From contig QPGO01000264.1 in the NCBI GenBank assembly GCA_008632985.1, forward strand, positions 1 to 64,000: a stretch of DNA of 64,000 nt. Reading direction: 5' to 3'. The DNA is from Psammoneis japonica. Its lineage: Eukaryota. Below are positions 1 through 64,000 of the stretch, piece after piece. Under the pieces are notes generated by a model. It ran no database searches. It saw only the letters and a program-made list of their open reading frames with translations, and was not told where the DNA came from. The position numbers and the translations under genes were made by a program. Position 1 is the stretch's first letter. Each line of letters opens with the position of its first letter.

Positions 1-1869
1 TGGAGTGCAGCTTTGCAAGATGGCACCTTGAAATTGTTTGAAATCTGAGTGATGATGACGGCATTGACTTTGTGTCATTCTTGGTTGATTCTGAGGAGAT
101 TGTGGCTCTGAGATTGGCAACGGTTCATGCAACACTGCTGTTGATGGATTTGCTGTCACCCACTTGGACAAAGAAGTGTTTGATTGCAACCTGCCGGTTG
201 ATGTCAAACCCTTTGTTTCTGAGCAGCCAGCTGACGGGGAAGTGCTCAGACACCGTCAAACCCCAAAATTGCTGCAATCGACTTTCAAGGGTTCAATGAC
301 CGACTGAGCCAGTGCAGTTGGAGGCACATCTGGTGTTTTAGAGGGCAACTTGTCAAATGAAAAGGGCGGTGGTGGTGGCGGCACATCTGCTCTTGCTCCC
401 GCATTGACAGCTGGGGCCACTGTGGGAGTGGTTCTTCTTGTTGGGGCACTGGTTGTGTGACAATGCTGTTCCCCATCAATCGCTGCTTTTGTCATGAAGT
501 TGATGACTCTGGTGCAATCGACCGAAACATGGAACCCGTCGAAGACCAGGACTGACAGGAAAGCTGGGAGGAAGCGACAGAAGTGAGCCCTGACAAAACC
601 AAACAGCAACAAAAGTTAGAACAGAAGCAAACACACACATGACATCTGCACGGCACCAACACATGCGCGCCATGCTTGTCCTGGGTCCGTCCTGCCTTGC
701 CGCTTGCCACACACAACCTCGCTAAAGGACACAACCACCATGACCAACGACAGCAGCAATCGTGATCAGTGGCTTGCCCAGATCAAGAAAAGTGTCAAAA
801 GAGAGGTTGGAGACCAGTGGAGTGAAGACAGCTGCTGGACGGAATTTGTGGAGGATGTGGCGTGGTGTGGCTCCACACTGAGGAGAACGATGTTGATGCG
901 ATTGACGCTTCTGCGGGTCTCATCGTCATCTGATGTCTGTCGCTGGAAGTCCTCCCAACAGCAAAGCATTCAACAGAAAACTCAAGGCATGAGGCGTGCC
1001 TCCCATCGTCTGCAACCTTTTGTTCAACGAGTGCGTCGCTCCACATCTGCAACCGCAGCAAGATGGTGAGTTGCTTTTCTCGTGTTTTTGAGTTCAATGT
1101 GTTTTTTGAACATGGAAATGAGTCGTCATTCTTTTGTTGAAAGTGTCTTGGAGTGCTTTTTGTTGTGGTTGCTGCCACGTTGTCGAGTCGATGTTCAGCG
1201 TTGTTGGCAATCGTCCAGCTGCGTAGGTGGCTCTTTGTAAATCATGCAGGAAATGCACTGGAATTTGTGCAGAATCCTGTGATGACACAACTCCATTTCT
1301 GTGACGACAAGCAGAAATGCACGGTGATCCTGGCGCACATTGCATGACGACACAAAACAGTGAATCCTCTGCATTTGCTTCACTCAACAAGCCGATGCGA
1401 GAAACGATTCAACATTGACTTTACATCGTTGACGATGTCAGAAGAAGCAGCCGATCCTTCTGAGCCACAGCCTCCAATGGTGCACCAAGGCACAGATCAA
1501 GCTGCATTGCCATCAGATCTGTTGCAGCAGCAAGGAAGAATGGGACAGGGAGAGCAGCATCAAGCACTGCAACACAAGCACCCATGTCACGAAACGCGCC
1601 GGCAGCCAGTGGCAAATCCGCATGCAGCCAATCCAAAAAAAAGAGTGCGCCACATTCAATGTTCTTCTCTGAAAAGTGCACACAGCAAAAGAGAGGTAAG
1701 AGAAAATCCAAAAATGGACAAAAACCTCCTTCTGAGATTTGTCTGTTGTTTGGTGCTCCATTCTCACATCTTGCACATTTCAATTTTTGTTCTCATTGGA
1801 CAGATTGAAGAGCACTTTTGGAAAAGTCTTTGTGCAAGTGGCAGACGAGGTTGCCCTCCTCTCTAAATT

Positions 1870-2180
1870 CTGTGGGCCAGGCGGTGTGGGAGTCGGCCGC
1901 GTGGCAGCAGCTGGGCGGTGCAGGAGGCGGCGGCGTTGGAGCAGCTGCCAGGCGGCGAGGCAGTGGTGCAGCAGTCGGTTTGCTGGAGCAGCGAGTTTGC
2001 GCGGGGGGTGGGTGGCATTGGAGCAGCTGTGCAGTGTGGCAGTTGGTGGCATTGGAGCAGCTGGGTGATGCAGGAATCAGCAGCCTTTGATCAGCCACCG
2101 GCAGTCAGCGTGGTGGGGTCAGTGGCATGGCAATGGTCGGCGGCGTGGCAGTCAGCGGCGCTGCAGCAATGGCCATTGTA
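1870..2180. repeat. Low-complexity GCAGC/GGTGGCATTGGAGCAGCTG repeat tract
   Basis: Recurrent ggcattggagcagctg and gcagcag units; Pro/Ala-rich if read on the minus strand; flanked by similar gtgcaa.tggcagacgaggttgc motifs near 1833 and 2255. Confidence 0.5.
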
Positions 2181-3788
2181 GGAGCCGACAGGTGGGGTGG
2201 TGCATTGCTTTACATGCAATTGTGTGACAATCCACCGTTTCTGGGAAAGTCGGGGTGCAACTGGCAGACGAGGTTGCTCTCGTCTTTGAAAAGTGTCGCC
2301 AGGTGATTCTTCACCTCAGAAAGAGGACAAACAGGAGTGTGGTGCAATCAGACAAACAGAGTCATGAATTGGAATCTTCAGTTTCTCCCTGGTGGACAGC
2401 ATTCTAGCTGGCCACTTTAAAATGAAGATGGCTGTGTTGCACTTTCAGTCTTTCCACTTCTGTTGGAAACGGCTTCAAAGAGTGTTTCAAAAGATTGAGA
2501 CACACTGATGTCAAAAGCTGACACAGAAATCGGTCGAGTGGGGTGACATTGTCTTGGTGCACTTGTCAGAAAAATGTGGCATGCAACACAACAGCATTTT
2601 GGCAGGAGAGGTTCAGCGGCAAAATGGGTTCGGCTGATTTTTACACGGTGAAGCGCGGGAAAACCGAGAAAAATGCTGTTTCGCGTTCTCTCCAACTAGA
2701 GGGTCAGTTGACATGGTCAACACCTTGTTGGAGATGTGAGAGCTTCTTCTGTTGACATCGGTCACTGTTGGCATCATGAAAGCCGTGATGACATTCCAAA
2801 AATGCAAACGAGTCATCCACACGAAAAATTCGAAAATTTTTGGTCGTTGCTGTTCGTCTGGCCATCGCACGTGCGCTTTGAAGTCACTGCAAGCCCTCTC
2901 TCTCACTCCCCTCCTTTGTGAGAGATTTCGGCATGTGGGAAGAATGAAAGAGGTGGCCACCGGAGGCGGCCCAGAAGAATGAACTGAAAAGGAGAAAAGG
3001 AGAAGAGAGAGAGGCAAAGAAGGAAAAAGGAGAAAAAGAGAAGACGCTGTGGGGCTGTCAACTTGCGGCCCTTGGCTGGGCTTCTGCCTGCAAAGCAGCT
3101 TGTCTGTGACTTGAGGTGCTGCGGTTTTACATGCTTGGCAGCAAAGCTCCCACAGCGTGCTGGAGAACTGTGGAGTTGTGCCAGTCTGTGGCACAGCTTG
3201 ACAGCGGCATCTTTTGTGAGGAGTGCTTTGCTGCCAGCCCATCATGGCTTTTTGGGCAGCTTGTTTTCCAAGCCTTGCCCTGCCAGCTTGGTGGCCACTG
3301 CCGCGGATCTATGTCTTCTTTGTTCTCCAAAATTCAGTGCACACTTTGGCGGGTTTGGCCCCAGCACTGTGTCCAAACAATTCTCTGAAGTTTCCAAGTG
3401 AGAAAACGCAGTGTCTCATCCTCTTTAAAAGATCTTCACAAAGATCCCTGGCAACAAGCACTGGCCTTCCCCACCCATGCTGTCAGAAGTGCCTGCCTTG
3501 ACAAATTCACAGCATCTCTCCCAAAGCATCTGTGGATGCTGCACCCAAATTTTGGCCCCATGCATCACAAAATCTTGAGAGAATTTGCAAGATCCACCCC
3601 ATCACGCACCACCACCTTTGGGTTTCCAGTGCAGCCACGGCTTCTGCAGCAGGCTGTTAACAAACATGCAAAGCAAGTTCCCACTGGGACCTCAAATTGA
3701 CCTGCAGCCTTCTTCATTCCGGCTGCACCCCTGCTTGAATTCTGGGTGGCCAGCTGAGCAAAACCTGGCTCTGTCTCTGTGTTTCTCA

Positions 3789-4184
3789 GACGGGTTCCAG
3801 TCCCAGGTGGGACTTTTTGTGACATTGGGCCCGTAGAATTCTACGTGCGAGCTCCGTAGTAAAATTATTAAGCAATGGACACATGAATGATCGCCAACAG
3901 AAAAAGAGGCAATTTTGCGAACGCATCTCCTCCTCCACACTTGAAGTACATTCTTTACAGTATGCCCGGGTACATTCTTCAGACATTAAAGAATGTGCCC
4001 AGCGCATTTTTATTGTCTTAAATGTAGATAACAGAAAGCCTTTGGCTTCGCAAAACAGGCAGTGTGGAACAAATTTTTATAATAGAACACGTAGAAATGT
4101 ACGTGCAAAACATACGACGGATGATAAAAAATAATTGTGTCACAGTTCAGTAGTGCGAGGTCCCACCTAGAGCTGGAACGCGTC
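3789..4184. mobile_element. Young MITE (about 396 bp), 4-bp TSD, possibly Sola-like
   Basis: Imperfect TIRs GACGGGTTCCAGTCCCAGGTGGGAC (3789-3813) and GTCCCACCTAGAGCTGGAACGCGTC (4160-4184); CTCA on both flanks (3785-3788, 4185-4188); interior retains TpA; decayed relative at about 44050-44290. Confidence 0.8.
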
Positions 4185-4594
4185 CTCAGTCCATGTTTCT
4201 GGCTTTGTCACATGTGGTGCAAAGTGCCCTCTCAGGAAAATGCTTGCAGTTGTGCTTGCCCAATGCTGTCCCATCAGCCAGTGCCTTGTGGCGCAGCCCA
4301 GTGCTTTGCTTGCCAGCTCTCCACTGCAAGCTCCTTGTGGCTGGTCTGGTGTCTTCAAGAAGCAAACCACACACCCCATTCTTGCCCAAAGAGGGGGGGG
4401 GGGGGGCAATCAGACCGATGCACATGCCTGAAAGACACCCTGTGTCATCAGGAGGTTCCACGATGAAAACGAGTGAGACGAATGAACAACACAACATCAG
4501 CTGCAACGTGTAAAGTGGGAGCGAGATTTTGCGAGCGGTTGTCTGTTGTCTTGGTTGTTGCGAGTGTTGCGCGAAGTCTTGTTGATGTCGAATC

Positions 4595-4765
4595 TACGCC
4601 ACAACATGCTGACTTTGTACGCCACAAAACTTCAAAAATTTATTGCTTTTGTGCTGGGTCTACGCCACCAGGCGCATGTAGAATCTCACATCAAAATCAC
4701 GTACGCCACTGTGGTACAAAATTTGTGTACACCCTGAACCATTCTACGCCACTCTAGTGGCGTAG
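4595..4765. promoter_or_regulatory. Phased TACGCCAC motif array ending in a hairpin
   Basis: TACGCCAC at 4595, 4618, 4661, 4702, 4745; CTACGCCACT-CT-AGTGGCGTAG inverted repeat at 4744-4765; upstream of the CRN-like gene; function inferred only. Confidence 0.4.
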
Positions 4766-5140
4766 GCTCTGGTATGTTTTTTATACTTCTGACTTGAATT
4801 TTTCCGTTGTGATTTTTCCTCTTCCTTTTTCTTCATAAACTCGGAGCCTACGTGACCGGACATGTGCCGTGTTGTTGTTGTGTGTGATGATCTCACATTG
4901 ATGAATGTTGACTTGCAATACGAGTCCTGACTGCCACCACGGCATACCTGAGTGTTGGGGTGCGTTGCTCTTCTCGTGTGCTCCTTCAAGATGTTCTTCG
5001 AATTTTTGTACGGAACTGGTTCCTTTTATTTTGTCAGACTTTTCAAAAGTTCTTGGAGTGCCTTTTCATTCGTCGCAGCGTGTTCAGTGTGTGCGCTTTG
5101 ATGTGTCCTTATGTTTTCCATTTGTTGGTTTTACAACTAG

Positions 5141-7207
5141 AACTGCTGCAGCAGCAACGAGAAAACAGGGAACGTGTTCAGCAGTGGCAGCAAAATAAAA
5201 GATCCATCGAGGGTAGTGGCAGTGACGGCGGTGTCGAACCACCACTGAAAAGGAGAATTGCATCCGGCGAAGACATGTCTTTTGTGGGTCTCCCCGACGG
5301 GGAACTTGATAGAGAAGTGTTGAAGTTTTCTCATCAAATTGCCGATGGGGAAATTAAATGCATCTTTGAGCGACAGCGCTTTATACCCCTCAAACAAAAA
5401 ATGGAGAGCGTTTTGTCCCAAGAAAAAGGCACCACACGTAAATGGAGCAGCGCCATCGTAACGGGAACGTCGGGCATAGGGAAGACTTGTTTTAGGCACT
5501 ACCTCGCCCACCAGCTGGTAACCGACGACGGGGAACTTGATAGAGAAGTGTTGAAGTTTTCTCATCAAATTGCCGATGGGGAAATTAAATGCATCTTTGA
5601 GCGACAGTGCTTTATACCCCTCAAACAAAAAATGGAGAGCGTTTTGTCCCAAGAAAAAGGCACCACACGTAAATGGAGCAGCGCCATCGTAACGGGAACG
5701 TCGGGCATGGGGAAGACTTGTTTTAGGTGCTACCTCGCCCACCAGCTGGCAACCGAGGGGAAAATTGTTGCTTACAACTACAGGAACCAAAGTCGCATGG
5801 TGTTCGCCCCATCCGTGGCGGAATTAAGACAAAAAGAAAAGGACGAAGAACAGGCTAAGAAGAAAGCCAATGAAAAGGCACAAGAAGCAGAGAAGGGAGA
5901 TGGCGACAACAGACCATATATACTCAGTTTGTTAGACCAATACCAGCAGGGTAACCTAGCGCCGATGGAGGGCGAAACGGAAGTTCAGCGCAACGCCTCA
6001 CATTAGTGGGGCACAGTTGAGAAGAGCAGCGAGTTCTGGACAAAATTACTCGAAAACGAGGAAACGTGGCTACTGGTTGACCTTCACCTTGGAGACCCAT
6101 ACGAGGATGGACGGCCGCCGTGTAAAATTGTCCTTGCCAGCACGCTACGTAAGGGAAACTGGCCTGATCTGAACTCGGGTGGTGGCAGACTGTCTAAAAC
6201 GCTTTATATGCCGCCGCCGTCATTGTCGGAATTGAAAGAAATTAAAGTTGCATTGAGCCTACCGCTCGACGATGACGACATCGAAAGGCGCTTCGCAGCT
6301 TTTGGTGGATCCGCTAGATTTGTGTTTCACGAAGGGGCGGAGCAGAAAGTTGAAGAGGCGTTTCAGGAGAATGGTTTGAAGAGTGTGCTGGATCCTAACA
6401 CTGAACATCCTGTCATGGCCAGTACGCTCGTGCACATTGTAGCTGATGAGAATTTCGAAAAGGTGGGGCGGAAATGGGCATCGCAGGAAATCGCAGAACG
6501 TGCTGTGGATGCATTGATCGATTCGAGAGAAGCGTGTGAAAAGCTATGGTTGGAGGCCACACAGGGCAGTACTGGTAAGCATATAAGGGGAGCGCGGGGG
6601 ATTTTCGCTGAGCGGCTGTGGCATCGTGCTGTGAAGAACGACAAGCAAGTTCGTTTGAAGGCGCTTGAAAATGGGAAGAAATCAACAGTGAACGTGATGA
6701 GGCTTGCAAAATCGTTTCATCGAACACGTCGATTTTCGAAGACAGATCTCTCGGATTTGACGAATATGGCTGTCGGCCAGTATGGTCTACCCGACAATGA
6801 CCAGTTACCCGCTGTAGATGCGATAGCTGTCTTGAATCATATGCCGTGGAAGTCCAAAAGCGATGAGGATGAAGTTACTCCTTCCGAAGATGAGAAGAAA
6901 CGTAAACAGAGGGAGTAGGGGTTGTGTTGGTATCATGCTGCAGATGGCAATTGGTGGAGATCACAAGCGTGCACAGGGGCAGACCTTGGTTGATATCGAC
7001 AAAAAGATGGGCCAACTTGTCTATGGTTACACTGCTGGCGAAGCCGGGTCGCCATTATACTTGATCTATGTTACGGAATCCGCCGACGGTTGGTCTTACC
7101 ACCCGTACGTAACAAAGGAGAACAAGTCTTACCAACCTGGAAAAATGCCCCGGCTTTTGAACAAGATCCAGCAGTTTGCAATGTCCTTCCCAAAGCTGAC
7201 TGATTAA
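5141..7207 (+). pseudogene. Crinkler/RHS-like P-loop NTPase plus restriction-endonuclease-fold protein, interrupted
   Basis: Walker A AIVTGTSGIGKT, Walker B-like TWLLVD (same frame, after TAG 6004-6006), LYMPPPSLSEL...IERRFAAFGGSARFVF, then LPAVDAIA and MLQMAIGGDH typical of CR-NTPase+REase proteins; one in-frame stop and a frame change near 6900-6920; probable splice acceptor at 5140; true start unknown. Confidence 0.7.
5296..5757 (+). repeat. 231-bp (77-codon) in-frame tandem duplication covering Walker A
   Basis: 5296-5526 and 5527-5757 are identical apart from 5 internal substitutions and the final junction base. Confidence 0.97.
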
Positions 7208-8056
7208 ATTTCTATCCACATCTTGCCTCAAATTCTAACCTCATGGACTGCGCCTTTCAGACAAGGCAGCAAATTAAAACTGCCTCCAGTTCATTTCGAT
7301 ACCTAGCTAGAGGTTCATTCTCCTTGGTCTCTCATATTATTTGTCGAGGAGGCACTCGCTGAATAATACTGCCAGCGGTGCTTATCCGTCAAGGCTGAAT
7401 CCTTCTTTCCAGACACCGCTCGAGCGAACATAGTAGTGAACATGCACTTGCTATTATTTCCAATTGCTTGATGGAGATGTAGGCGTCTTTGCATCTTGTT
7501 ATCTCTCAAGTGCGACTAAATTCACACATTCAATTCAACATCAGGTCGAGCACGCCATTGAAGTGATCAAACTGGGCTCTACATATATGATGGCTAAAAG
7601 CATGCTTTCAACACATTAGTGTAAGTTGCTCTCCTTTCTGTTGACCTCTGAGCTCCTGCCGTCCGAGTGTTCTCTTGTCGTGATGGTCGCTGTGTGAGCC
7701 CTATACGACGTGTGAGGCTTGTGGAGGATGCATTACTCACCAGCAAACCAGAGGAAGCCATGCGACAGCGAGACGAAAGATGTGTTGGTGCTCACGTGCA
7801 TGGTGATGGCATTGTAGTTGGAGCTGACCAGGGACATAAACATTGGGTCAACATGCTGTGCTGATGGAGAGGGATTGCGCGCAGTGCATTTTAATTGGCG
7901 TTCTCCATGTTGTGGCTGACGTCACAGTGCTTTCCATTTGGCTGTCTTTTTGCCACAGTTGTGTCTCCAACTGTCACTCTCCATCAGGCAAGCAACCCTT
8001 TTCTGCCAATGAGGGAGACAAAGATTCCTCTCTCTTGGCCACTCGTTGTCATCAAA

Positions 8057-11000
8057 ATGGCAGGTGGTTGGGGTGGAAAACGAGCTGGAGCTGGAGCTCC
8101 TGCAATGGCTGCTCGCCGCAAGGCGCCAGTGTCTGGCTCCAACGTTTTAACAAACTGTTTTGTTCCCGTCAACAACAACAACGCGGACGACGATGATGAC
8201 AGCATGGACAATGCTGCAGCACCAGAGGAGCACACAAACATTGGGGCAACTGCTTCAGCGGCTCAAAACAATGTCGATGATGCGGGCAGGGACATCCAGA
8301 ATGACAGCAACAACGACGACGAAGCAAGTCAATCATCAGAATTTGAGGCTCCTCAAGAATCACAGCCATGGTGGGTGCTGCACAACATGACGACAGATCC
8401 ATCAGAGCAAAATGACGAGAACAACTTCAAGTTTCTGGCATCCTTCGAGAATGCATGGAAAACATTGACCAGAGTCAAGCTGCAAAAAATGTCAGGAGAG
8501 GCTTCCTGTGGTCAAAAGGAAAAGATTTCATTCCTCAACAAGACGCAATGCCTGGCACTGTTGGAGATGCGTGGAAGCTGTTTTGCGAGTGTGATGTCTT
8601 TAATTGGCGACCGGATGTCATGATTCCTGGGTGGAAACCAAAGTGCATGTCGGGGTGCAATGGCATGGGCTGCATTGGCATCAACGTCCACGATCGCGAC
8701 CCCAGATTTGTGTGTGGTGTGCCCAAGAACTGCATTTTGAATTCGCCAATCCAATGGATCTGCCACGAATGTAAAAAGACAAATGGGGATGAGGCAGCCA
8801 ATGGCATTCTAAAAGACCAGAGGCGGCAGCACATGTTCAGCTCCCATCATCCGGCAGCACTCTTGCAATTGGAAGCGAATTTCCCTGGGGAGTTCCATTT
8901 GTTCCCTTGCTGCCTTGGTTGGAGAAGCGGAGTCAACAAAATGTTAATGGAGTGGATGTTTGAATGTGCTGACAAGGGAATGGGCCCTTCGGCTGTTCGA
9001 GGGGTCACAGAAACAATTCAATGGCACCACCACAATTGTTGCGAGGTGCTGTTTGACAAATTCTTGGTGAACCATCTCAATCAGCCTCTTCCCGCCAATG
9101 GCCATGCAAACTGGAAGGCACTGGCACAGGACCTCAAGCCTTTCCCGGAATGTGACTCAAATGACAGTTGTGACCATGCTCCAAATGAAAAGTTGTTGAT
9201 TGAAATGCACTGTGAGATCACGACGGACAACCGTGACTGGATCGATTCCATGCACGCTTGACGGTTGTGTGCAAGTGAGATTGTGGCGCTTGATGCATCA
9301 CACAAGGTGCCAAAGTGGCCAGCAGATTGGAAGGGGCAGCAGATGCATGAGACTTTGATCACTGGAAAGAATGAGTGCTTTGAATCCATGATGGCCTTTT
9401 TTGCTCTTGCCGACAACCACGTTGAGGTTCAGTTGGCATTTTCACAGCTTGTGTCGCAAGGCTTCAATCCAGATTTCACCTTCACTGATGCACCAGCACG
9501 AGACCGAAGGATGCTCAAGGAAGCTTCAGAATCACTGCGCCGGGGGGCATCTGGTGCAACACAGTTTTTGATTGCTGCTGAAAATGGCAAGCTTCCAATT
9601 CCAGAACTTCGAGGCAAGCCGGAGCACCTTGACTCAAGTGAGAATGCCATTGCTGCAATGAATGTCCTTGAAAATGAAGTGCAGAAAAGCAATGCTGCCA
9701 GCACCATTTCTCTTGACATTGAGCACAGTGTCTTTCAGGATGGCACAAGGAACACCACTTTGGTTGTCACACTTGGGTCTGTTGCATGTGTCCCAACATT
9801 CTTGTGATTCATTTGGCAAAGATTCAAAACAAGCAAGAGATTATTTCATGCTTGCAAAGTCTCTTGTCATGTGACGACATCATTTTTGTTGGGAGCAACA
9901 TCAGGAATGATCTCACTGCCCTGAAGAAGGACTTCCCTCATGCTGGTTTTGTGATGAAGAACTCGAGAAATCTCGGATTGATGGTGGTGTGCCAAGGACT
10001 CGTTCAACATGCAAAGGGACAGCATGGACTTGATGCACTTTCGGCACTTCCATTGAAGCAGTTCCTGCCGTAGCCCGCTCTTTGTGCTTCTGACATTTGG
10101 GACAAACCAGGGGAGCCAGCAGATGATGCCATGCACTGTTGCTCTAGAGATTGCGAAGCAGGTGCGCAAGTGTGCGAGATTCTGAAAAATTTGCCAGATC
10201 TTTCTATTCGTCCAATGAAAGCTGAGCTTGCAGTGGGATTGGATGTGGAGATTCTTTCATGCCGGAAGACATGTGTGGAACCAATTGCACGGAGCAGGAT
10301 CATTCAGGTTTCAGGCCAAACGGCAGCAGGAACAGAGCTCACTGATGCAAAAGTTCTGCTGGAGGTTGCAGAAGTGTTTGAGCCGGACTCGTGCTTGCTC
10401 TTCACACAGGTCGGGAACAGGTGTTGCAAATGCAATGGTCTTCAGCACAAGATTCGGCACCAAAGGTCGTGGGATCTTCGAACATTCTGAGATGCTGCAA
10501 AGGTTGTGGGTGGGACAGTTGTCACAGTTGAAGAATGCAAACGTCTTCGGGATTGTGTTGATGCACAAGAAGGAGGCGGGAATGAGCCGGATGGTGGACA
10601 AGGAGGGAAAGATGGAGAAAAATCGAATCAAGGAGAAGAAAGAACGTTGAACGAACAGTTTGACTGTGAGTGTGGCGAAGGTGAAGAATCCTTTTGCCCT
10701 GAAAATGATGAGATGCCAGATGATGAGCCTGACAACAATGACCGGGAGTCCACCATTGACATTGATGAGAAATCTTTGGAATGCTTGGATCCAATTCTTG
10801 ATGAGGAGGAAATTGATTGTAGCCCTGAAGAGATGCCTCCCATTCTGGAACAGTTTCCTGTCGATGATGAAGAGAGCCTAACACCAATCCAGGACACAAA
10901 CCGAGTCACAATTGGTGGGGTCGTTCGATCTTTGCTTGATGCCGCTGATGAGCTTGCAGCTCAATCAAACGTCAGTGATGCAACAAATCTTGCTGATGCA

Positions 11001-12524
11001 GTCAACAAAGCAGACATTTTATCAAGAGTGCTGGGTGATGCTTTCCATTTCATGAGACGAGTGAGGGCACCTGTTCATCATGATTGGAAAGCTGCCTTTT
11101 TCTCTGCTCTTTGAGACTCAACATTCACCCATGACTGCGATGATGAAAAGGAAGTGACTGCAGTGTTTTTGAGGAAAGGGAAAACATGGGAGCAAGCCAT
11201 CAACCACAGCTTTGGCTGTGTTGCTGAACGAGTCCAAAGAATCATGCCATGTTCAAATGTCCTGTGCAGTCAAGTCAAAGTTGTGTTTGAGCATTTTCAA
11301 GACAAGGTGGACTCAAAGACTCAGAAGCCGCTGTTCAACTTGCAGGCTGGAGCTGAAGCTGATCAAGTGCTTGAAGCTTTGTCACATGGTGAGCCATCTG
11401 ATCCTCAAGGTGTGTCTTTCTATGCTCCCATTCCAGATGCAAGTGGTGAGCCAAAGACCAACAAAGATGGGTTGCAGCTGTGGCATTGTTTCCAAGGTGC
11501 TGGGGCAGCCGAGTCGAGGCATTCGCAGCACACGAGGTCATTTGGTCAAGTCCGTGTGGGACCCACATGCTCGGTGTCAGTTCTTTTGAATCACCATCAT
11601 CGGCAAAGTTGGCATGCATCCAAGAACCACCGACCCGGGTTCCCAAAGATGCATCATCACAACACTTTTTTGGCAGACACAAAAAATGAGCTGCATCAAC
11701 GAATCCATGGAAGCCCCAAATGCACTGGTTGGGCAGCGCATGAAGAGATCAAGCCGTCGTGGTGATTCATGGCATGCTTGATGGACTCAGACCTGCCGCA
11801 CACACCAGTTGCCTGCAAGAGTGAGCAGCTGCTGTTCAAGACACTGCTTGAAAGATTGATTCGAGATGGACACTCCCTCAATGCACAAGAAACATTTCAA
11901 ATCATGTGTGAGATTTGGAGTCGAGACTTTGTGAAGGTCCTGCCTCAGTTGGAAAAGGGTCAAGAAGTCACCACATTTCCAAAGTGTGTTGGTCACTTGA
12001 TTGCTTGCTGTGAAAAGTGGCGAGTCAATGTCAACAAAGCTGCAGCAATTAGAGAAGCAGCAAAGGATGAAGCTCTGCAGGCGTTGAAGTGCAACAAGGG
12101 CATTTGAGCTCCCAAGCCATTTCAAGCGGAACCTCTGCACAGGCAAAAAACACCAGAACCAGAGGATGAATCATTCTCTCTAGATCCGAATGATGGTGAA
12201 GCTCAAGTTGCAGTTGACATGCCAGCAGAGGCTCCTGCGGCGGCAACTGTGGCAGAGGCTCCCAAGGCAGAAGCTGCAGCATGAGCGTGTGCTTCCAGAA
12301 CTTCCGCCACACTTTTGACAGCACCATTGCCCATGGCACAACTTGTTCCATTCCAACATCAACAATGCCCATTTCCTGTCATGTGTCCTCAACACCAACA
12401 ACTGCCAAGATTTCTCCCGCCTGACTTTTTTCCTGCCAAGAAACGATCAAAAATGGTGTGTCTGAAATGCCACGACCCCCGGTGCATGGCTCCACATGCT
12501 CCTGGGGCGTGCAGTGAAGGCTGA
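8057..12524 (+). pseudogene. Dada-like DDE transposase with inserted DEDDy 3'-5' exonuclease, degenerate
   Basis: Across frames: WICHEC zinc motif, VALDASHKV (D1), FTFTD (D2), exonuclease motifs ISLDIEH / FVGSNIRNDL / HCCSRDCEA, VLGDAFHFM (DxxH), EPSDPQGVSFY, HCFQGAGAAESRH (E); many stops, frameshifts and Y->C/H changes. Confidence 0.7.
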
Positions 12525-12554
12525 GGTGAAACAGCATGTGAACTCTGTTTCAGG

Positions 12555-12686
12555 TTGTGTCCACATTTCTTTCCTTCTCTTCTTCTTTTCTCTTTCATTT
12601 CCTTCTCTCTCTTTTCCCTTGCTGTTTTCCTCTTCTTCCGCGCTTCGCGCCAATCAAGTGCACGCTCCAGCAGCATGGAATCTTTG
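12555..12686 (+). mobile_element. Probable 3' terminus of the Dada-like element (pyrimidine tract plus terminal motif)
   Basis: CT-rich tract then CGCTCCAGCAGCATGGAATCTTTG-CC, same spacing as CGCTCCAGTAACATGGTATAAAAA-CC at 24833-24858. Confidence 0.55.
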
Positions 12687-18749: not shown

Positions 18750-18950
18750 CATGCTCAAATCATCGCCAATCGTGCTCAAAAGTGCTCACAAGTGCGCAAA
18801 TGTGCTCAAAAGTGCTCAAAAGTGCTCAAATGCTGCTCAAATGCTCAAATGTGCTCAAATGTGCTCAAATGCTGCTCAAATGCTGCTCAAATGCTCAAAT
18901 GCTCAAATGATGCTCAAATGATGCTGCTCGTGCTCAAATGCTGCTCAAAC
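18750..18950 (+). repeat. TGCTCAAA minisatellite (8-11 bp units); further patches at 19160-19213, 19522-19575, 20597-20700, 20910-20963
   Basis: Directly visible tandem tgctcaaa / tgtgctcaaa / tgctgctcaaa units. Confidence 0.95.
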
Positions 18951-22242: not shown

Positions 22243-22259
22243 GAACAGTGGCGTGCAAA

Positions 22260-31035: not shown

Positions 31036-31039
31036 CAAG

Positions 31040-51910: not shown

Positions 51911-53189
51911 ATGATCGAGATCTGATGCATTAACTTGCTCACTGAATTGCAGTGCAATGTGCTTTCCATGTCAGTTTGTTTCTCTTTCACAACTGGAGCT
52001 GTCCATTTGTTTCACAAACATTGTGCATGGATGAGCAGGGCTGCATGCTTGGTGGCAGTGACTGGCAGAAAGGATCCATCAACCGCTCCTCTGCTTGACT
52101 TTCACAACAACACAAGATCTGAAGATTGTTTGCCATTCACTTGATGCTGTCACAACAAATTTGATGAGTTGTGCTGCACTGCACTTCTTCAATTGCTTCA
52201 TCATTTGAAGACAAGCAGAGAACACAGCCTTTCCATCATTTTGACCAAGACCAAGCATTTCTTCAATGGCTTCAATGATCAAAATGGCAGCAACCTGGAT
52301 CTCTCCTTCACTTGATTCATCATTGCTGAAAACAGTCCAGCAATGGCGGACTTCGTTCATGCCCTGGGCCACCCCTTCCTCGACAATGTGCTCTTGCAGA
52401 CAACCTTCAAACACCGCACAGATGACGGCATGACAAGGATCTTCATCATCCTTTTGAGTTCATGTTTTCTGATTGCAAAAAGCTTTGAGACAAATTTGCC
52501 ACTTGATTTTCTTTTGTGGAACAATGCAAGACATCCAATGCATCAGATTGATCAACCACTGCTGGAATCTGAGCCATCCGAATCTGAGTTGACATTCCAA
52601 TTGCTGTGTTTCTAATGTGCAGACAGATGTCAGGTGTTGCTTGATCAGCTGCATTGAAAAACATGCTGAAGACATTTTCCGTGAAGTCTGGATTGTTGCC
52701 TGGCCAATCAAACTCCATTTCCAGCTGCGCGCATTTCAACAAATGAAAGTTTGTGCCACATTGTGCAATTTGCCTGCAGTTCTCTTGTGCCTCAGTGGCA
52801 TTTTCTGCATCTGCAGCATTGCGCAATCAAACTGCCAATCTTTTAATGTCATCAAAAATGAACTCGAGCCCACAAATGGTTCCATGACAGATCATTTGTG
52901 GTCACCCAATCAATGTCGTCCATGGTGTTGTTGATTGTGTGAACATTGTGAGCATCAAGTGTTCTCATTCTGCGGCAGAGTTGATGCAAAATTCAGGTTG
53001 TACAATGGCCCACAGTTTTGAAGATTTGCATCAAAAAATCTGGAACAAACAATGACCTTAACACTTTGATGTTTGAGTGAAGATTTTTTGTTCAAAAATT
53101 TAAAATGAATGAACTGGTCATTGCGATTCAAAATTGACAGTGTCTCAAATGTTCAAATTTTAAAATTTTTGAGAAAATTGATGATCAAG

Positions 53190-53420
53190 TGAAATCAGGA
53201 GCATTGGATGTAGTTTTGCCGTGCTCTGCAAGTGAGGCACTGGCACACACGCTGACGTGTCTCATCGGAGGGAGGCAACAAGGGGCAGCAAAGCAATCGT
53301 CGGTCACTTGTTGTTGCCATTGTGTGATGACAAGCCTCTGGAAGTGTCTTGTTGATTGTTGCATCACTGCACCACTGGGACTGTGAGTGGCTGAGCCCAT
53401 CTGGCAGCTGGATTTACTCG
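53190..53420 (+). repeat. 5' LTR (shared portion, 231 bp)
   Basis: TGAAATCAGG...GATTTACTCG aligns without gaps to 59601-59831; true right end uncertain. Confidence 0.92.
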
Positions 53421-53710: not shown

Positions 53711-55135
53711 ATGATGGCTGCTCCTCCGGATCCAATTGAGACTGCTCTTGATTGGATTGGATTTGACAATCCAGATTGTCGAGCCTTGCTCATGGCGGAT
53801 TTTGCAACTTTTTGAGATTTTGAAGACCTCAAGGAGAGTGACATTGACACACTCGCAGCTTCTCATGCAAGGAGGATGGTTGCTGAAGGGCGCATTCACT
53901 TTGGACTAGCTTGCACTCGCCATCTCAAAGCTCTGATCCATTGGGTCCAGGATTTTTACCATGTGAGTGAGATCCCCACTCTTGGGGGATTAGATGAAGC
54001 AGTCTTCCGTTCGCAGCTGCAAATGGCACTCAATTGGGCTGAGATTCGCTCTCAGCAGAAAGACACGGCAGACTCTCTTGGCAAAGAAGCGTCACCTGGA
54101 ATGTTGGAGAATGAGAAAGGATGGGTGAAGTGGGGCACAGGCCCAACGAACATGCCAGGCATTGTGCTCGGAGTGTCCGGCGTGCCACTTGTTCATTGCA
54201 TTCGTTCAAATGATGACCCTGAACCTGATGGTCACAACACTTTTGTCCAGAAGTGTGTTGCTTGTGCGCCACTCCACTGTCCTGCTTTTGAAGCAGATGC
54301 TCGCACTGTTCATCTGTTGATCAAGTCCCTTGCTGTGGGGATGCCAAGTGAGCAATGGTTGAAAGACCACAAGAGTGAGCAGAATGGTCGTGTGGACTGT
54401 CAAGCTCTTTGCGATCATTGCCAGGGAGAGGGCAACTTGTCGCGCCGCATTTCTGAGGCTGAGAATTTAGAGAAAACACTCCATTGCAAGAGTGAACGCG
54501 CTGTGGCTTTTGAGTTGTTTGTCAACAAGCTCCAAGAAATGTTTGACATTTTTGAGGAGAATGATGAGCCCAAGACTGAAGCCCAGAAACTGCGCATCCT
54601 GTTTGAGAAGACGCAGCATCAACAGCTTCAGAGCATTGTTGAGACCTTGAAGGCACAAAATGAGTTCGGAGGAGGCATCTCATTTACCACGGCGGCCAAT
54701 CACCTGGCGGCTAAGGCAGCTGCTCTTCTAGAGACAGTCATGCATCGCTGTGCAATCGCTTCAGTCACCTCTGGAGGAGGGAAAGAAGGCAACATCCACA
54801 ATGCTGATGGAACCATTGACACGGGTTTCCACAAGAATTGGCATCAGCTGAGCAAGGAGGACAAGCAGAAGGTTTGCAACGAGCGTGCACGTCCAGGTGT
54901 CAACAAGAAACCTGGGAATCCAAAATGTTGCGCTGCATCTGTCAAGTTGCTTGAGAAGAAGAATCTGAAGCTGTCGTTGCAGCTTGAGGAAGTGAGCCGT
55001 AAAATCTTCGCTCTGAATGCAAGCACCAACTCTGATTCTGGTGAAGGCGATTCAGGAGCTGACGGGAAAGGCAAGGACAATGCCGGAGATGCTTTTGGAG
55101 GTTGCAGTGAGAAACGTGGAGCTGGACGTCAATGA
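53711..55135 (+). pseudogene. gag: Copia Gag, degenerate
   Basis: LDWIGF...FEDLKESDI, LKALIHWVQDF, GVSGVPLVHCIR, FEADARTVH, HCKSERAVAFE; one internal TGA. Confidence 0.85.
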
Positions 55136-55174
55136 CTCCCAAGCTGGACTCTGCTCTGCAGCATTGTCAACCTT

Positions 55175-58100
55175 GTGTTGTGGCCACTGCACTGGGGCAG
55201 GGGTCAGTCATGTTCATCATGCAAGGATTCAACGTGCCAAGACAGTCAGCGCATCTACGAGATCACTGCCTCAACGAGGTGTGTCTCTGCCACTCGATCC
55301 AATTCACGAAACACTCACATCCAAGACATGAATCAGGTAAAGCATGGGTGTCTTGAATTGGATTTGCATGCTGATGCTGCTGTTTTTGGTCAAAACTTTA
55401 CCCTCTCAGGTCACTCTGGACGAGAATGCGACGTGTCACCCTGCAATGAGGGATGCGAGTCCATCAAGAGTGTCCCGACAGCTTTGGCGGCCATGGCGTG
55501 GATGTCAACAGCTGTGGGAGCAACACACATCCTGGTTTTTCATGAGGGCACGTGGATGGCTGATTCCATGGAGCACTTGCTGTTGAACCCCAATCAGTTG
55601 CGACACTTTGGTGCATGAGTTCAGGGTGACCCCTGTTCTGAGTCGCCTCTGCATGTTCTCACGGAGGACAAGTCATTTGTGTTACCTCTGGAGGTGATGG
55701 GGACCAGCATCATTGTGGCAACCCGGACTCCTGCAGATCAGGAGCTCCAGGAGTGCCCGCACATCCAGATGACCTCCCAACAACCTTGGGATCCACATGC
55801 CGTCAAGTTTAAACAGCCCAGAACTTGACGATCTGTGGAGGAGGAAATGGAGTTGATTCGGTCTGTGGCAAGCATTCAAACCAACATGACGCATGAATTC
55901 AGTGAAGATCCTGCTTGTGGCAACCCTCAGTCTGGGGACCACCATGACAGGAGATTCATTTATGGTGTTGACCAAGTTCAATCAAGATTGGTGGCAGCAG
56001 TTAGAGCAGACTCAGATGCACAGATTTCTGCCATCGAGACAATTGGTGAGGAACCTGAGGACGTGGCTCATCCAAAGACTTTCATGTCAAAGGAGAGACA
56101 CAGCAACATTGCTGCAGCTGACTTGAGTGAGCGTTGGTGCATTGGATTGAAACAAGCAGCTGCTGCACTGAAGAAGACCACTCAGAGGCTAGCACAGTCA
56201 GCGTTGATGCTGTTGGGCAGGCGTCACCAAGCCAATCGGATGTTCACAAAACCAAGATTACGTGGTGAATGGGCAACCGACACTTGTGGACGGAAAAGTG
56301 GTTTCGTTGGAGGGCAATTGATGCGCCCAGATCTTCATGAACAAGAAGCACTTTGCTGCGATCCATCCCATGGACAAGAAGAGTAAAGCTGGTGAAGCTC
56401 TCAAGACATTCTGCCAAGAATTTAGTGTTCCGGAGAAGCTTGCAATGGATGGTTCTAAGGAACAGACCAAACCTGGCACTGAGTTCATGAAGACAGTCCA
56501 AAAGGAGGGCAATGATCATCATGTCATTGAGCCTGACAGGCACAATCAGAATCCTGTGGAAGGAGTCGTCCGTGAGGTTCGACGCAAGTGGTTTTGCATC
56601 ATGGTGAAGAAGCAAGTGCCGAGGAGACTTTGGGATCACGGACTTGTGTGGAGCTGCAAGACAATGTCTAGGACATTTCTGAGGGCTCATCACTTGGATG
56701 CTGGAGTGCCACTTGAAGATGTTCTCGGCAAGACTCTCTGAATGTCTTGACTTTGGGTTCTGTGACTGGGTCTGGTGCAGGGAGAATGCGGGACTTGGAG
56801 ACGAGAAACCAGGCAGATGGCTTGGTGTCTCTCACAGAACGGGGAGTCTCATGTCGCACCACATTTTGACAGCAAACGGCAGCGTCATCTCAAGGACATC
56901 TGTTCATTGGGTCACCAATTTAGAGGCCGCTGCACAAGGCAAAGTTCAACAGTTTTGATGAGGAAATCAAGCGCTGCATGAAGGAACAAGATTTTCCGGA
57001 GGACAAGGAATGCAAGATCAGTCCCAAAGACTGGAAGGACTGCCTTGGTTATGATGATGAATTCCTCGACGAATGCGACCGCGTCATGTCTTCGGAGGAG
57101 GCATTGGATGAGGATGACAACAAGAAAGACAAGGAAGCCTCACCGGAGGCAGCCGACTGGGGATGTCTCAATGTGGAAGTTGCTCTTCCTAGAGATGACA
57201 ATGGCCCCAAGTTTGCACGTGTTGCCAAGAGGTTGAGGGATGCCAATGGCATCCCAATTGGTGCAGCCAACAACAATCCCATCCTGGACACTCGAATGCA
57301 TCAGCTGGAGTGCCCTGATGGTCGCGCTGCTGCACCATCTGCCAACTCCATTGCCATGAACATGCATGCACAGATTGATGAGGATGGGAATCGACATGTT
57401 CCATTTGACGAGATTGTAGATCATCGCACAAATGGGGACATTCCAGATGCCACATTCTTTGAAACTGAGCAAGGCGTGCAGAAGCGGTGCAAGACCACGA
57501 AGGGATGGGAGCTTTTGTTTCAATGGAAGGATGGCAGCATGACTTGGATTGACCTCAAGGATGCTGAGGAAGGCTTCCCGGCACAGGTTGCTGAGTTTGC
57601 TGTTCAGCGCAAGATCTCACAGGAGTCAGCGTTTGCTTGGTGGGTTCCTCACGTTGTCAGGACACGCATGCGTTCCACAGCAAAAGTCAAGTCGAAGCAT
57701 TGGTTGTGAACCCACAAGTTCGGCATGCGGATTCTGAAGAGTGTCAAGGAGGCATTAGAACTTGATCATGCAAATGGCAACACCCTGTGGTGGGACGCTG
57801 TTTGCATGGAGATGAAGAACGTTTGAGTTGTGTTCGAGAAGTTTGATGGTGAACCAGAAGACATGGCGCCTGGCTTCCAGGAGGTGAAGTGCCACGTGAC
57901 ATTCGACATCAAGATGGGAGAAAACTTCTGCCACAAATGTCGAATGGTGGCTGGGGGACACACTGCTGAGGCTCCCACCACAATCACCTGCTCCTCTGTT
58001 GTCTCTAGGGACTCAGTGAGGATCGCGCTTGCGCTTGCCGTGCTCAATGACTCACAAGTGTTTGCATGTGACATCCAGAATGCCTGCCTCACTGCCCCTT

Positions 58101-59413
58101 GCAGGGAGAAGATTTGGACCCATGCAGGTTCAGAGTTTGGCGAGGATGAAGGTTGCATCATGATTGCAGTCAGGGGACTTTACAGGTTGAAGAGTTCCGG
58201 AGCAGCACTCAGAGCCTTCCCAGTGGAGAAGCTTTGTGATTTGGGGTGCAAGCCAAGCAAGGCCGATCCTGATGTGTGGATGCGACCTGCGGTGAAACCT
58301 GATGGATTCGAGCACTACGAACGTGTTTTAGTTTGTGTTGATGATGTGCTGTCGATCAGCCATGAACCCCTGAAAACAATGGATGGCATCAGGTCCAAGT
58401 TCAAGCTCAAGGGTGACAAGGCAGCTGAACCCGATTCTTGCCTCGGGGCTGCTCTTTCCAAGATGGATTTGGCGGATGGCACCACTTGTTGGACCATGTC
58501 GGCGGAGAAGCATTGCAAGGCCACTGTCCAGAATGTTGAAGACAAGCTTGGCAAGGAAGGCAAGCAATCACCTGGCAAGGCAACTGCCCCTTTGAGCAGT
58601 GGACACAAGCCTGAGTTGGACACAATGGGCGAGTTAGATGCCGCGGGACTTGACTGTCACCAAGAGCTGATTGGCGTGTTGGTTTGGATTGTGGAACTTG
58701 GTAGAGTGGACATTCATCTGGAAGTTTTGTTGATGTCTGCCCACCTTGCTCTGCCCTGACTTGGTCATCTGGAACAGGTGCTGCATGTCTTTGCATGTCT
58801 CAAACATGTTCCGAGGCACCGAGTGGCATTTGACCCAACTCATCCCATGATTGATGAGCGGCGATTTGTCAAGCATGACTGGCATGACTTCTGCCGTGAC
58901 GCGGAGGAGGCCATTCCGTCTAATGCACCACCAGCTCGAGGTGACACAGTGTCAACACATTGTTTTGTGGATGACAACCATGCTGGCAATGTTGCCAATC
59001 GTCGCAGCCATGCAGGTGTTTTGACATTCCTTTGTCAGGCACCCATTGTCTGGCACTCAAAACGTCAGAATGCTGTGGAGGCAAGCACCTTTGGAGCTGA
59101 GATCGTTGCCCTCATGAATGCCATTGAGCTCATTGAAGGGCTGCGTTGCAAGCTGCGAATGTTTGGGGTTCCGATTGAAGGTCCTACAAATGTCTTCTGT
59201 GACAATGAGGCCGTGTGCAAGAACTGCTCTGTTCCTGAGTCTACACTCAAGAAGAAGCATCATTCCATTGCGCACCACCACAACCACAAAGCTGTTGCTG
59301 CGGGGACTGTTGGGATTGCAAAGGAAGACACTGAAACCAATCTTTCGGATTTGTTCACAAAAGTCATGGCATCAGTGAGAAGGAACTTTCTGTTGGACAA
59401 GTTCACGCATTGA
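55175..59413 (+). pseudogene. pol: Copia Pol (protease, integrase, RT, RNase H), degenerate
   Basis: ELDLHADAAVFG; PEKLAMDGSKEQ...EPDRHNQNPVEG; FDIKMGENF...RMVAGGH, CDIQNACL, LVCVDDVL; VWHSKRQN, FCDNEAVCKN, NLSDLFTK; several TGA stops and frameshifts. Confidence 0.92.
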
Positions 59414-59600
59414 GTTTGAGTTTGCTGTTTGAGCGGCGGTGACTTTCTTCCCTGGTGAGGGTTTGCACCATGCTCTGGCAGTGGTGATTTTTCCCCAGTG
59501 AGGGTTTGCACCATGCATCATTGTCACGTTTGTTGTCGATTCAGCTTAGAGTCGAGTTGTCCCTGTCAAGACTTGCTGGGAACATTTCGAGGGGACCGAG

Positions 59601-59831
59601 TGAAATCAGGAGCATTGGATGTAGCTTTGCCATGCTCTGCAAGTGAGGCGCTGGCACGCACGCTGATGTGTCTCATCGGAGGGAGGCAACGAGGGGCAGC
59701 GAAGCAATCGTCGGTCACTTGTTGTTGCCGTTGTGCAATGACAAGCCTCTAGAAGCATCTTGTTGATTGTTGCATCACTGTGCCACTGAGACTGTGAGCA
59801 GCTGAGCCTGTCTGGCAGCTGGATTTACTCG
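59601..59831 (+). repeat. 3' LTR
   Basis: Matches 53190-53420 and follows the PPT. Confidence 0.92.
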
Positions 59832-62399: not shown

Positions 62400-63935
62400 A
62401 AAGACCCATTTCTTTGTCTTGTCATGGAAGCAAACTGGCTCAAATCTTCTTTGTGGGATCTTGCGCCATCATCCAGAAATTGCAATGCACAACGAGCTGT
62501 TCAACCCAACTGACATCTTTGTGCATTGTCCATCAATCACGAGGCATGTTGGTGAAGACCCAAATGACAAGGGCTTGCAATGGACTCACCTTGCTCGGGA
62601 TCTCTGCCCAGATGGAATTCTGGAGCACATTTGGACCGGCAAGTGTGCCAGCAGCAAAGAAATCAAGGAAGGAGCAAGGCTGTAGAACTCAAGTCATTTC
62701 CCAACAACTGGCCTGGCAAGAATGAAGACATCTGGAGAACGTCAATCTTGGAAAACCACTGCATCAAAAAGATCATGCTGTGCCAAGAAGATGAGCTTGC
62801 AGTCTTCATTTTGATGCCACGTGCAGAAAAGAATGGACCCTGCATGAGACTCTCAAGCACCCCAAAGGTCTCAAGGTTCACACAGACCCAGCGTGCTTTC
62901 AGGCATTTGTCAACAACTGCAGAGACACCTTTCAATGCAAGCACAAGTCTCCAACAGAAAAACGTGATGCTTTCCAAATCAATTGTGAGCAGATTGTAGA
63001 AGAAGAGCACTTTGATGAAAATGTCTGGCCTCTTCTCTGGCACTTCTTAGAAGTTGATGACAGTGCAACACCAAAGCGGCTCAAGGAGATTGTGGGGTAA
63101 GCTGATGATGACAAGAACCCATCAGAAATCATTTCAAGCTGTGAAGAACTCAAGTTCTGCTTCCGACATGCCAACATGATGCCTTTTCTACATGGGCATC
63201 AAGCACGATGTCTTCTGCATTCAACAAATCTGCTGGCAAGGTGAAGGCTGCTGGAGATCATCTGCTCAAGAAGGCAAGCTTCACAGTCGTTGGACAATTC
63301 TCCTCCCCATTTGCTCTAGAAGGACTCAAAGCAACACCAACAGGGTTTTGCACCGGGATGCGATCATCACCAACTTCAAAGCCAACCGGCTTTTCGAACT
63401 TGTGAGTTCCTCTCAACACTCAGTGGTGGACACTTTTGCAGAAGGTGAATGTTGGGTGCACCTTGAAAACTTTGCCTCTTCCCTGAAGGAAACTTGTTCT
63501 TCCCAGAAGCTCAAAGACACAGTGTGCGTCATTGGAATTGACGTGGACAACAAGATCTTAATTTCAAATCATGCAAAACATCAGATCAGCGACGTGCTTT
63601 GTCCATGCAAGGTTGTTTTTGTTTCCATCTCTGCCATCATGTGCTGTCATGTCTGCAGGATTTGGAGCCACCTGGTGAGCAACACTGGTCAACATGGCAA
63701 CTTTGTTGTGCTTTTTGGCGATGACATTGTTTTGGAAACAAAAGGATGGCAAGACAGAGTTGAGGCACGTTTCCACAAGATTGCAGTTCAAACAGGATTG
63801 CCCTTTGGTGCTGCGCACATCACTCTAAATGACAAGTCATTTCCCAGCTTTCCCACCTTTCCTGCTGTCCATCGATGGTGCATCAACCACTTTGACCACC
63901 TGTTGCTGAAGCAGCTCATGAGTCAGGGAGCAGAG
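62400..63935 (+). pseudogene. Sulfotransferase (Stf0-like) followed by a GT-A glycosyltransferase-like domain, degenerate
   Basis: KQTGSNLLCGILRHHPEIAMHNELFNP, KAVELKSF, KKIML; then CVIGIDVD, FVVLFGDDIVLETKGW, GLPFGAAHITLNDKSFPSFPTFPAVHRW; stops and frameshifts. Confidence 0.65.
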
Positions 63936-64000
63936 GTGCACAAATCGTCTGTTGTTGTTCGCACACGTGCATTCGCACACTCAGCGCGTGCACGAACGAC

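Follow-up and report, generated by a model that had tools for sequence, protein, structure and literature searches.

Contig QPGO01000264.1 of Psammoneis japonica (assembly GCA_008632985.1) was analyzed from position 1 to 64,000 of the forward strand, and this whole stretch of 64,000 bases is referred to as the window. It consists largely of repeats, among them a decayed Copia retrotransposon with two long terminal repeats (LTRs), satellite arrays, a fragment of a PIF1/Helitron-type helicase and an old copy of a miniature inverted-repeat transposable element (MITE). In all of these, the dinucleotide TpA (TA) is nearly erased; DNA with normal TA content is confined to two islands and one young MITE. 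We consider it very probable that the window is a silent block of transposons and satellites which has passed through a DNA-level hypermutation aimed at TpA. The features are as follows (o/e: ratio of observed to expected counts).

1-3780, no strand: TA-erased repeat block (3-15 TA/kb)
3781-4190, plus strand: young, TA-rich, very high-copy MITE in TA-free DNA, with terminal inverted repeats of ~30 bp (TA sites 3834-4168)
4191-4594, no strand: TA-free remnant of a repeat that separates the MITE from the gene island, with one TA (4511) between 4168 and 4595; depth ~1,188
4595-7892, plus strand: TA-normal island 1 with a P-loop NTPase gene; TA o/e 0.5-0.6, CpG o/e 0.7-1.06, depth 27-29
7893-24408, no strand: TA-erased block of 16.5 kb according to its TA count; it includes repeats of no assigned class, 10-bp satellites and duplicates of 99% identity
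22309-22602, plus strand: fragment of a PIF1/Helitron-type helicase, TA-erased; 13 homologues
24409-26083, no strand: TA-normal island 2, GC content 0.43-0.44; first TA at 24409, last at 26083
26084-64000, no strand: TA-erased block of 38 kb that extends to the end of the window
30952-31518, plus strand: second Copia reverse transcriptase (RT) fragment (RVT_2, E 7e-16), with CTDD replacing YTDD at 31511
38513-39148, no strand: array of a 56-bp satellite; a second array is at 42310-43408
44049-44231, plus strand: old TA-erased MITE copy, 83% identity to 3789-3971
53183-53420, plus strand: Copia 5' LTR, paired with 59594-59831
55271-59410, plus strand: Copia pol, split into four frame segments (1,378 codons with 7 stops; Tyr 0.29%)
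59594-59831, plus strand: Copia 3' LTR, paired with 53183-53420

TpA depletion along the window

The window contains 489 TA in 64,000 bases, while ~4,300 are predicted from the base composition (o/e 0.114). The dinucleotides CA and TG are in excess (o/e 1.69 and 1.65, with counts of 6573 and 6748, respectively), and CG has an o/e of 0.46. The other dinucleotides composed of A and T are close to or above expectation (AA 1.21, TT 1.24, AT 0.89). We applied the thresholds for TpA-poor, CpA+TpG-rich windows that were used in a recent preprint on Bigelowiella natans (Mettrop et al. 2026, bioRxiv 10.64898/2026.01.13.699255), namely rho(TA)<=0.43 and rho(CA+TG)>=1.52. Both are reached by 57 of the 64 1-kb windows, including all 38 in 26001-64000. 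The seven that fail are those of 3001-8000 and 24001-26000. Three TA-normal patches (5,197 bp in total) have 41.2 TA/kb, compared to 4.7 TA/kb in the remaining 58,803 bp, and the median TpA o/e of the erased DNA (57-58 kb) is 0.07. The near absence of TpA outside a few patches had been claimed in a preliminary description of this DNA, which was made from the letters alone. Its two by-eye counts (35 TA in 53711-59413 and 12 in 6001-6300) are exact, and the observation of TpA erasure in the window is confirmed.

The borders between erased and normal DNA are sharp, within ~100-300 bp around the single-copy NTPase gene. At the end of island 1, the last TA is at 7892 and the next one only at 8148. 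The 28 TA of the young MITE are confined to 3834-4168, and its flanks are TA-free. In the TA-poor parts, TAA and TAG are gone, so that TGA is nearly the sole stop codon and long stop-to-stop frames occur on both strands. There are 105 such frames of at least 130 aa, few of which are recognized by Pfam.

The pattern is also present in sequencing reads. The public run X1, which may be the assembly's own sample, contains 82% of the words sampled from 1-10000, and its k-mer contigs were compared with the window. Among the eight contig pieces listed (out of 3017), six show no difference to the window, at a depth of 27.5-31.9. Four of these lie wholly in TA-poor DNA (1-547, 1800-2327, 8898-9391 and 16419-17097), and another (5679-8134) spans from the TA-normal island 1 into TA-poor DNA, crossing 7892. 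TA-poor stretches have the same depth of ~30x as the TA-normal gene. These exact matches exclude a consensus or polishing error. Two further runs, X2 and X3, contain almost none of the stretch. In X1, the word depth reaches 95,195 at the MITE (bin 3601-4200), compared to ~29 where the DNA is single-copy. The run also joins 3780 directly to 4185, as expected for flank copies that lack the MITE insert.

Direction, context and speed of the changes

The direction of change was determined from the Copia pol region. It was aligned over its full length to intact polyproteins from metagenomes (~1,400 aa, 55-66% identity), and polarity was assigned with 40 of the 120 listed homologues at columns with at least 70% agreement. 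At the 36 conserved Tyr codons, the window element now codes for His (16), Cys (16), Phe (3) and only once for Tyr. Other conserved residues are retained in 634 of 792 cases (Trp 25/25, Phe 33/38). The Tyr content of the window element is 0.29%, compared to 2.7-4.6% in the 120 homologues. The altered motifs that had been pointed out previously are indeed present: CVDD at 58334, CTDD at 31511 (another CTDD is at 17167), WHSKRQ at 59051 and GLTH at 22537.

The base-level spectrum was derived from those amino acid changes that can be explained by one base change; 34 multi-step and 19 ambiguous columns were dropped. A>G was found 38 times (preceded by T in 31 cases and by A in 3) and T>C 30 times (before A in 28 cases, not before A in 2). 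G>A occurred 25 times (17 after C) and C>T 14 times (12 before G), while transversions of all types sum up to 33. This spectrum points to two processes, one converting TpA and the other converting CpG, both to TpG or CpA. It is thus established that the direction of change is from TA to TG or CA. The A>G and T>C changes might have turned out no more frequent at TpA than in other contexts, which the preliminary description had named as a refuting outcome; in the Copia pol, they are concentrated at TpA.

Both strands are affected, as had been proposed: the 59 polarized Copia sites divide into 31 TG and 28 CA. Along the element, TG and CA alternate in 36 runs (30.4 expected, z 1.47). Neither a transcription- or replication-strand bias nor processive stretches were found in these 59 sites and in the TG/CA counts of the window. 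The conversions are thus mutually independent along the DNA, with equal odds for the TG and the CA outcome. A change from Tyr to Arg, which would convert TAY to CGY (Y, pyrimidine), is not seen at any of the 36 conserved Tyr columns. Hence, the product TG or CA is no longer a substrate, and each site is converted once.

The paucity of TpA is not intrinsic to this Copia family, which is common in marine and freshwater metagenomes. Among 80 related Copia loci from metagenome contigs, the median TA o/e is 0.665, and 79 of them have retained Tyr in 1708 of 2122 conserved columns (His and Cys together 58). For this family, the possibility, raised beforehand, that intact element sequences already lack TpA and Tyr is thereby answered in the negative. 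One related locus shows a mild excess of the replacements, with 6 His or Cys and 27 Tyr at 36 columns (L028). Another one (L039, 1-4947) has a TA o/e of 0.24 and a CpG o/e of 0.86. At 35 Tyr columns it has 4 Tyr, 17 Cys, 12 His and 2 Phe. This element is a Copia of another lineage, 55% identical to the window element, and shows the same order of sequence contexts (see below). At least one other public sequence thus carries the TpA scar, there without loss of CpG.

The bases around TpA influence its loss. For the expectation, the 79 related Copia loci were used as the unmutated baseline. The remaining TpA, sorted by the flanking bases (R, purine), are listed as observed/expected.

Window Copia pol: RTAY 0/69.7; mixed 13/97.1; YTAR 13/35.8 (p 5e-6)
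L039: RTAY 5/83.3; mixed 31/116; YTAR 29/42.8 (p 2e-9)
All TA-poor DNA of the window: RTAY 3/~987; mixed 120/~1374; YTAR 145/~507

TAY, which is equivalent to RTA on the other strand, has been erased ~3-4 times faster than TAR. An additive model, in which each strand is weighted by the base 3' of the A, fits the ten palindrome-collapsed contexts reasonably. The relative rates in this model are ~2.2 for T, ~2.0 for C, ~0.75 for G and ~0.54 for A; they are rough, being based on small baselines. The relative order of TAA and TAG is not the same in the window and in L039.

With 26 TpA remaining of ~203 expected, ~87% are gone from the Copia element. Over the 242 aligned columns of the LTR pair, there are 5 TG/CA doubles, 8 CpG-type singles, 1 TA/TG and ~5 other differences. 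In six windows, the TA o/e is at most 0.1 while the CpG o/e is still at least 0.6. The extent of TpA loss in the Copia element, compared to the few other differences between its LTRs, together with these CpG-retaining windows, indicates that TpA loss outpaces methyl-CpG decay. Over the 57 TA-poor windows, TA o/e and CpG o/e are weakly correlated (Spearman 0.37, p 0.004). Ordinary CpG decay, which had been noticed before and is reflected in 17 of 25 G>A after C and 12 of 14 C>T before G, accompanies the loss of TpA; it is slower and adds to the excess of TG and CA. The TG/CA doubles of the LTRs are no proof of TA ancestors, because CpG ancestors would give the same picture; by our own estimate, the doubles are in rough excess of what CpG ancestors predict.

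DNA other than that of retrotransposons is affected as well. In the 56-bp satellite, four column pairs have only TG and CA as YR dinucleotides (neither CG nor TA), and four others retain CG. The old MITE copy (44049-44231) has TG or CA where it is aligned to TA of the young copy. For the PIF1 fragment, of which 98 residues were aligned, 10 of the 13 homologues have the domain PF05970 and one of these also Helitron_like_N; its one conserved Tyr column is now His (GLTH). In the block 7893-24408, two 99% duplicates differ nearly only at CpG- or TpA-type sites. Taken together with the LTR differences, this indicates that the process acts on DNA, after insertion. The preliminary description had listed every class of decayed element as affected. 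This holds by polarity for one Copia element and one PIF1-type fragment and by composition for satellites and the old MITE copy, while its non-LTR and DDE elements and its 'host-type genes' could not be located among the 100 stop-to-stop open reading frames (ORFs) of the window that were covered by a Pfam scan.

Overall, the changes are the result of a TpA-specific, strand-symmetric, single-hit and locally bounded transition process in DNA. The earlier proposal of a TpA-specific A:T>G:C mutator that acts at the DNA level on both strands and spares genes is supported by the replacement of Tyr by His and Cys, by the sequence context, by the equal numbers of TG and CA and by the effect on non-retroelement DNA. 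TpA erasure is not a plain induction by repeats: the MITE has a depth of 95,195, yet the copy at 3781-4190 is pristine. Either the process is episodic or not simply domain-wide, or this insertion is very recent.

Candidate mechanisms and known systems

Each TpA is converted once, by a transition on either strand, to TpG or CpA. In the mechanism that we propose, the agent would be an enzyme that is recruited to silenced or foreign DNA. Removal of TpA would destroy Tyr codons (including those for catalytic Tyr residues), TAA and TAG stop codons, TATA boxes and AATAAA signals, so that the elements would be permanently disabled. As to the chemistry, we tentatively favor, at not quite even chances, a deaminase of the TadA/ADAT type, which would recognize the T before its target A and turn this adenine into hypoxanthine. 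The natural substrate of TadA/ADAT enzymes is A34 after U33 in tRNA, with UAC (TAC) as the context in bacterial tRNA-Arg. Since these enzymes read U directly 5' of the target A, they fit the specificity for TA and the preference for TAY; the TAC context of the bacterial tRNA-Arg resembles the latter. TadA, ADAT2-ADAT3 and the base editors derived from them share with the process in the window the A>G change with T or U directly 5' of the target, but the known natural enzymes act on tRNA. We know of no enzyme in nature by which A:T pairs of chromosomal DNA are edited, so that such an enzyme would be of interest for genome-defence biology and for base editing. A deaminase gene (motifs HxE/PCxxC) was not found among the Pfam-scanned ORFs of the window.

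The preliminary description knew of no account of the process in diatoms. In full-text literature searches, the only description of TpA hypermutation was the preprint of Mettrop et al. (bioRxiv 10.64898/2026.01.13.699255), and TpA->TpG/CpA is thus already on record for the chlorarachniophyte alga Bigelowiella natans. According to its main text, 231 of 302 new point mutations in 15 mutation-accumulation lines fell into two regions of viral origin, a giant virus (nucleocytoplasmic large DNA virus, NCLDV) of 186 kb and a virophage of 25 kb, both being single-copy integrated DNA viruses. All but one of the mutations in these regions are A>G or T>C, and these are all stated to be on TpA, giving TpG or CpA. 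The rate there is given as ~6e-7 per site per generation, ~1000x that of the rest of the genome. The mutations occurred in some lines only, so that the activity is apparently not constitutive. The preprint also lists 124 TpA-poor, CpA+TpG-rich clusters, each of at least three consecutive 1-kb windows, and reports that TpA-poor coding sequences are enriched for RT and DDE domains. The authors propose an ADAT2-like DNA adenine deaminase, by homology alone; activity on DNA is cited for amphioxus ADAT2 and, on cytosine, for trypanosome ADAT2. As far as covered by a term search, the main text does not mention diatoms, 'context' or 'trinucleotide'. A term search in a preprint on diatom transposable elements (TEs; 10.1101/2025.10.24.684338) was negative for TpA, dinucleotide, hypermutation, RIP and deaminase.

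The window is a further and far more extreme instance of this process, first reported in 2026. Both systems have A:T transitions at TpA that lead to TpG or CpA depending on the strand. In both, the action is local and adjoining host DNA is spared (in the window, 4.7 compared to 41.2 TA/kb), and the long-term result is low TpA with high CpA+TpG; RT sequences are among those affected in both, and DDE-type sequences are reported to be so in B. natans. The pristine MITE hints that in the window, too, the activity is not constitutive, as it apparently is not in B. natans. The two cases differ in extent, with a reported rho(TpA) of 0.45 in the NCLDV region as compared to a median o/e of 0.07 over 57 of 64 kb, and in their targets, which are viral insertions there but transposons and satellites here. 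The main text of the preprint does not report an extended TAY context, an absence of strand tracts or a limit of one hit per site, all of which are seen in the window. The window adds descriptive detail on the context, the symmetry, the single-hit rule, the range of targets and how fast TpA is lost compared to CpG decay.

Among the alternatives to a deaminase, an oxidation of thymine is the least improbable, though it is unlikely. A dioxygenase of the TET/JBP type could oxidize the T in TpA of silenced repeats to 5-hydroxymethyluracil (5hmU) or 5-formyluracil (5fU), and T>C would then result from mispairing or misrepair. 5fU pairs with G, and in the sequence, T>C on one strand is the same as A>G on the other. 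Dinoflagellates have a TET/JBP homologue that produces 5hmU, with which transposons are marked, and TA and TC were the preferred sites in earlier work, as stated in PMC11572971. A preference for TA plus TC is not seen in the window, however, where only 2 of 30 T>C are not before A, and the sole direct study of the signature (Mettrop et al.) favors a deaminase in its main text, by homology only. The preliminary description had also considered error-prone patch repair with a Pol eta-type polymerase (Y family), triggered at T:G mismatches of deaminated 5-methylcytosine (5mC) in CpG and causing A>G at nearby WA (W, A or T). The motif of Pol eta is WA. CpG decay does occur in the same blocks, and its weak correlation with TA loss would agree with such a coupling, but only 3 of 38 A>G follow an A, and AA is over-represented (o/e 1.21) rather than consumed. 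In addition, TA was erased before CpG in the six windows mentioned, L039 is TA-poor at a CpG o/e of 0.86, and the hypermutable regions of B. natans are described as being without C>T. We therefore regard Pol eta as very unlikely to be the agent.

An artefact of sequencing, library preparation or assembly, such as the misreading of a modified base at TpA, has hardly any probability left. The platform of X1 is not on record and the run may be the assembly's own sample, but its k-mer contigs match TA-poor stretches without a single difference and at the depth of a TA-normal gene. A base that is misread on both strands would yield a mixture of CA and TG at each site, not clean alternatives. Moreover, the pattern ends sharply at the borders of the gene and the MITE, each site has exactly one change, and the unrelated metagenome contig L039 has the same signature. 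Editing of element transcripts by an ADAR- or ADAT-like enzyme, fixed by reverse transcription, would agree with the fact that the best-studied element in the window is a retrotransposon and with the usual preference of ADAR for U 5' of the edited A (as given in the discussion of bioRxiv 10.64898/2026.01.13.699255). Such editing should be confined to the sense strand, but sense and antisense changes are equally frequent (31 and 28) and the two LTRs of one element differ. DNA that is not of retroelement origin (satellite, MITE copy, PIF1-type fragment) is TA-poor as well, and the reported targets in B. natans are single-copy integrated DNA viruses. The probability of RNA editing is accordingly minute. 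Even closer to zero is a scenario devoid of any mutator, in which the elements were poor in TpA from the outset or lost it to selection or GC-biased gene conversion. A mild under-representation of TpA is a general feature; the o/e is 0.5-0.7 in the islands and in the related loci. Yet relatives retain Tyr at 1708 of 2122 columns, and the presence of His or Cys in place of conserved, catalytically needed Tyr argues against selection. GC-biased gene conversion is disfavored by the undepleted AA, TT and AT (1.21, 1.24 and 0.89); only TpA has been lost.

Several points weigh against the proposed TpA-directed hypermutation and its chemistry. For the context analysis, the baseline is either short (5.2 kb of islands) or drawn from a single Copia family. 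The deaminase chemistry is putative, and the symmetry of the strands hides whether A or T is the damaged base. With its platform not on record, X1 is not a fully independent replicate. Part of the TG/CA doubles between the LTRs could stem from CpG ancestors, and a pristine MITE with 28 TA lies inside an erased block. Finally, no excess of C>T is reported for the hypermutable regions of B. natans, whereas CpG decay is prominent here, so that the two processes may be linked. They look separable, however, in L039, with its TA o/e of 0.24 and CpG o/e of 0.86.

The process in the window can also be compared to other well-known systems. Like fungal repeat-induced point mutation (RIP), it is an irreversible, dinucleotide-specific transition hypermutation of repeated or foreign DNA, acts on both strands and disables transposons. 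However, RIP converts CpA to TpA (C>T) with an AT-rich outcome, while in the window TpA is destroyed and the GC content rises. RIP depends on duplication, while in the window the MITE, at ~3,000-fold single-copy depth, is intact and an older copy is erased. Deamination of 5mC at CpG likewise yields TpG and CpA and occurs in these blocks as well, but it is unable to remove TpA and is slower here than the loss of TpA. With AID/APOBEC and ADAR, the process would share the character of a deaminase-based innate defence and clusters of context-specific transitions in foreign sequences. APOBEC differs by converting C to U on single-stranded DNA, which leaves strand-coherent tracts of G>A; the changes in the window are at A:T pairs, strand-equal and unclustered. 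ADAR acts on double-stranded RNA, while the changes in the window are in DNA.

The window shows the TpA process run to saturation over DNA from a retrotransposon, a helicase fragment, a MITE and satellites. Any candidate enzyme must reproduce the preference for TAY over TAR, the equality of the strands, the lack of processive tracts, the single hit per site and the sharp borders; in a different, tractable alga, the responsible enzyme could be found. It is tempting to speculate, although this is doubtful, that in a lineage other than Bigelowiella the erasure of TpA represents a widespread genome defence of protists, a mirror image of RIP, which is exerted by a natural A-to-G editor of double-stranded DNA that is recruited to silenced DNA, prefers TAY and hits each site once. 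Two weak arguments set the window apart from B. natans: its erased block is larger than what the preprint describes, and the gene of island 1 has long ORFs without introns, while B. natans is rich in introns. Repeat annotation, gene callers and the dating of TEs would fail in such regions, where proteins are free of Tyr, TGA is the only stop codon and divergence is inflated. The test for conserved Tyr that has changed to His or Cys works, as illustrated by L039.

Genes and minor features of the window

Among the 100 scanned ORFs, Pfam matches were obtained twice for RVT_2, once for P-loop families and, below the threshold, for FAD_binding_3. Island 2 (24409-26083) is AT-richer; neither a long ORF nor an Rfam match nor a tRNA was found in it.

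The gene of island 1 (4912-6915, plus strand) consists of two long ORFs without introns (4912-6003 and 6007-6915), separated by an in-frame stop codon at 6004-6006. It has weak matches to P-loop families of Pfam (nSTAND/NACHT/AAA) and is single-copy by depth. An internal tandem duplication of 231 bp (5295-5756, 97-98% identical) doubles the Walker-A region. Homologues from metagenomes have 532-584 aa and 63-69% identity. It may represent a defence gene of the STAND type, or else a pseudogene.

An open frame of 439 aa (53816-55132, plus strand) without a Pfam match is located between the 5' LTR of the Copia element and its pol region. It is outside of the region covered by the polyprotein homologues, which starts at 55271, and may represent gag or a nested sequence.

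Duplicates of ~99% identity pair 18918-19214 with 20668-20964 and 20161-20566 with 21006-21411. A satellite with a unit of 10-11 bp forms short arrays (18772-18949, 19519-19574 and 20600-20699) inside this recently duplicated segment.

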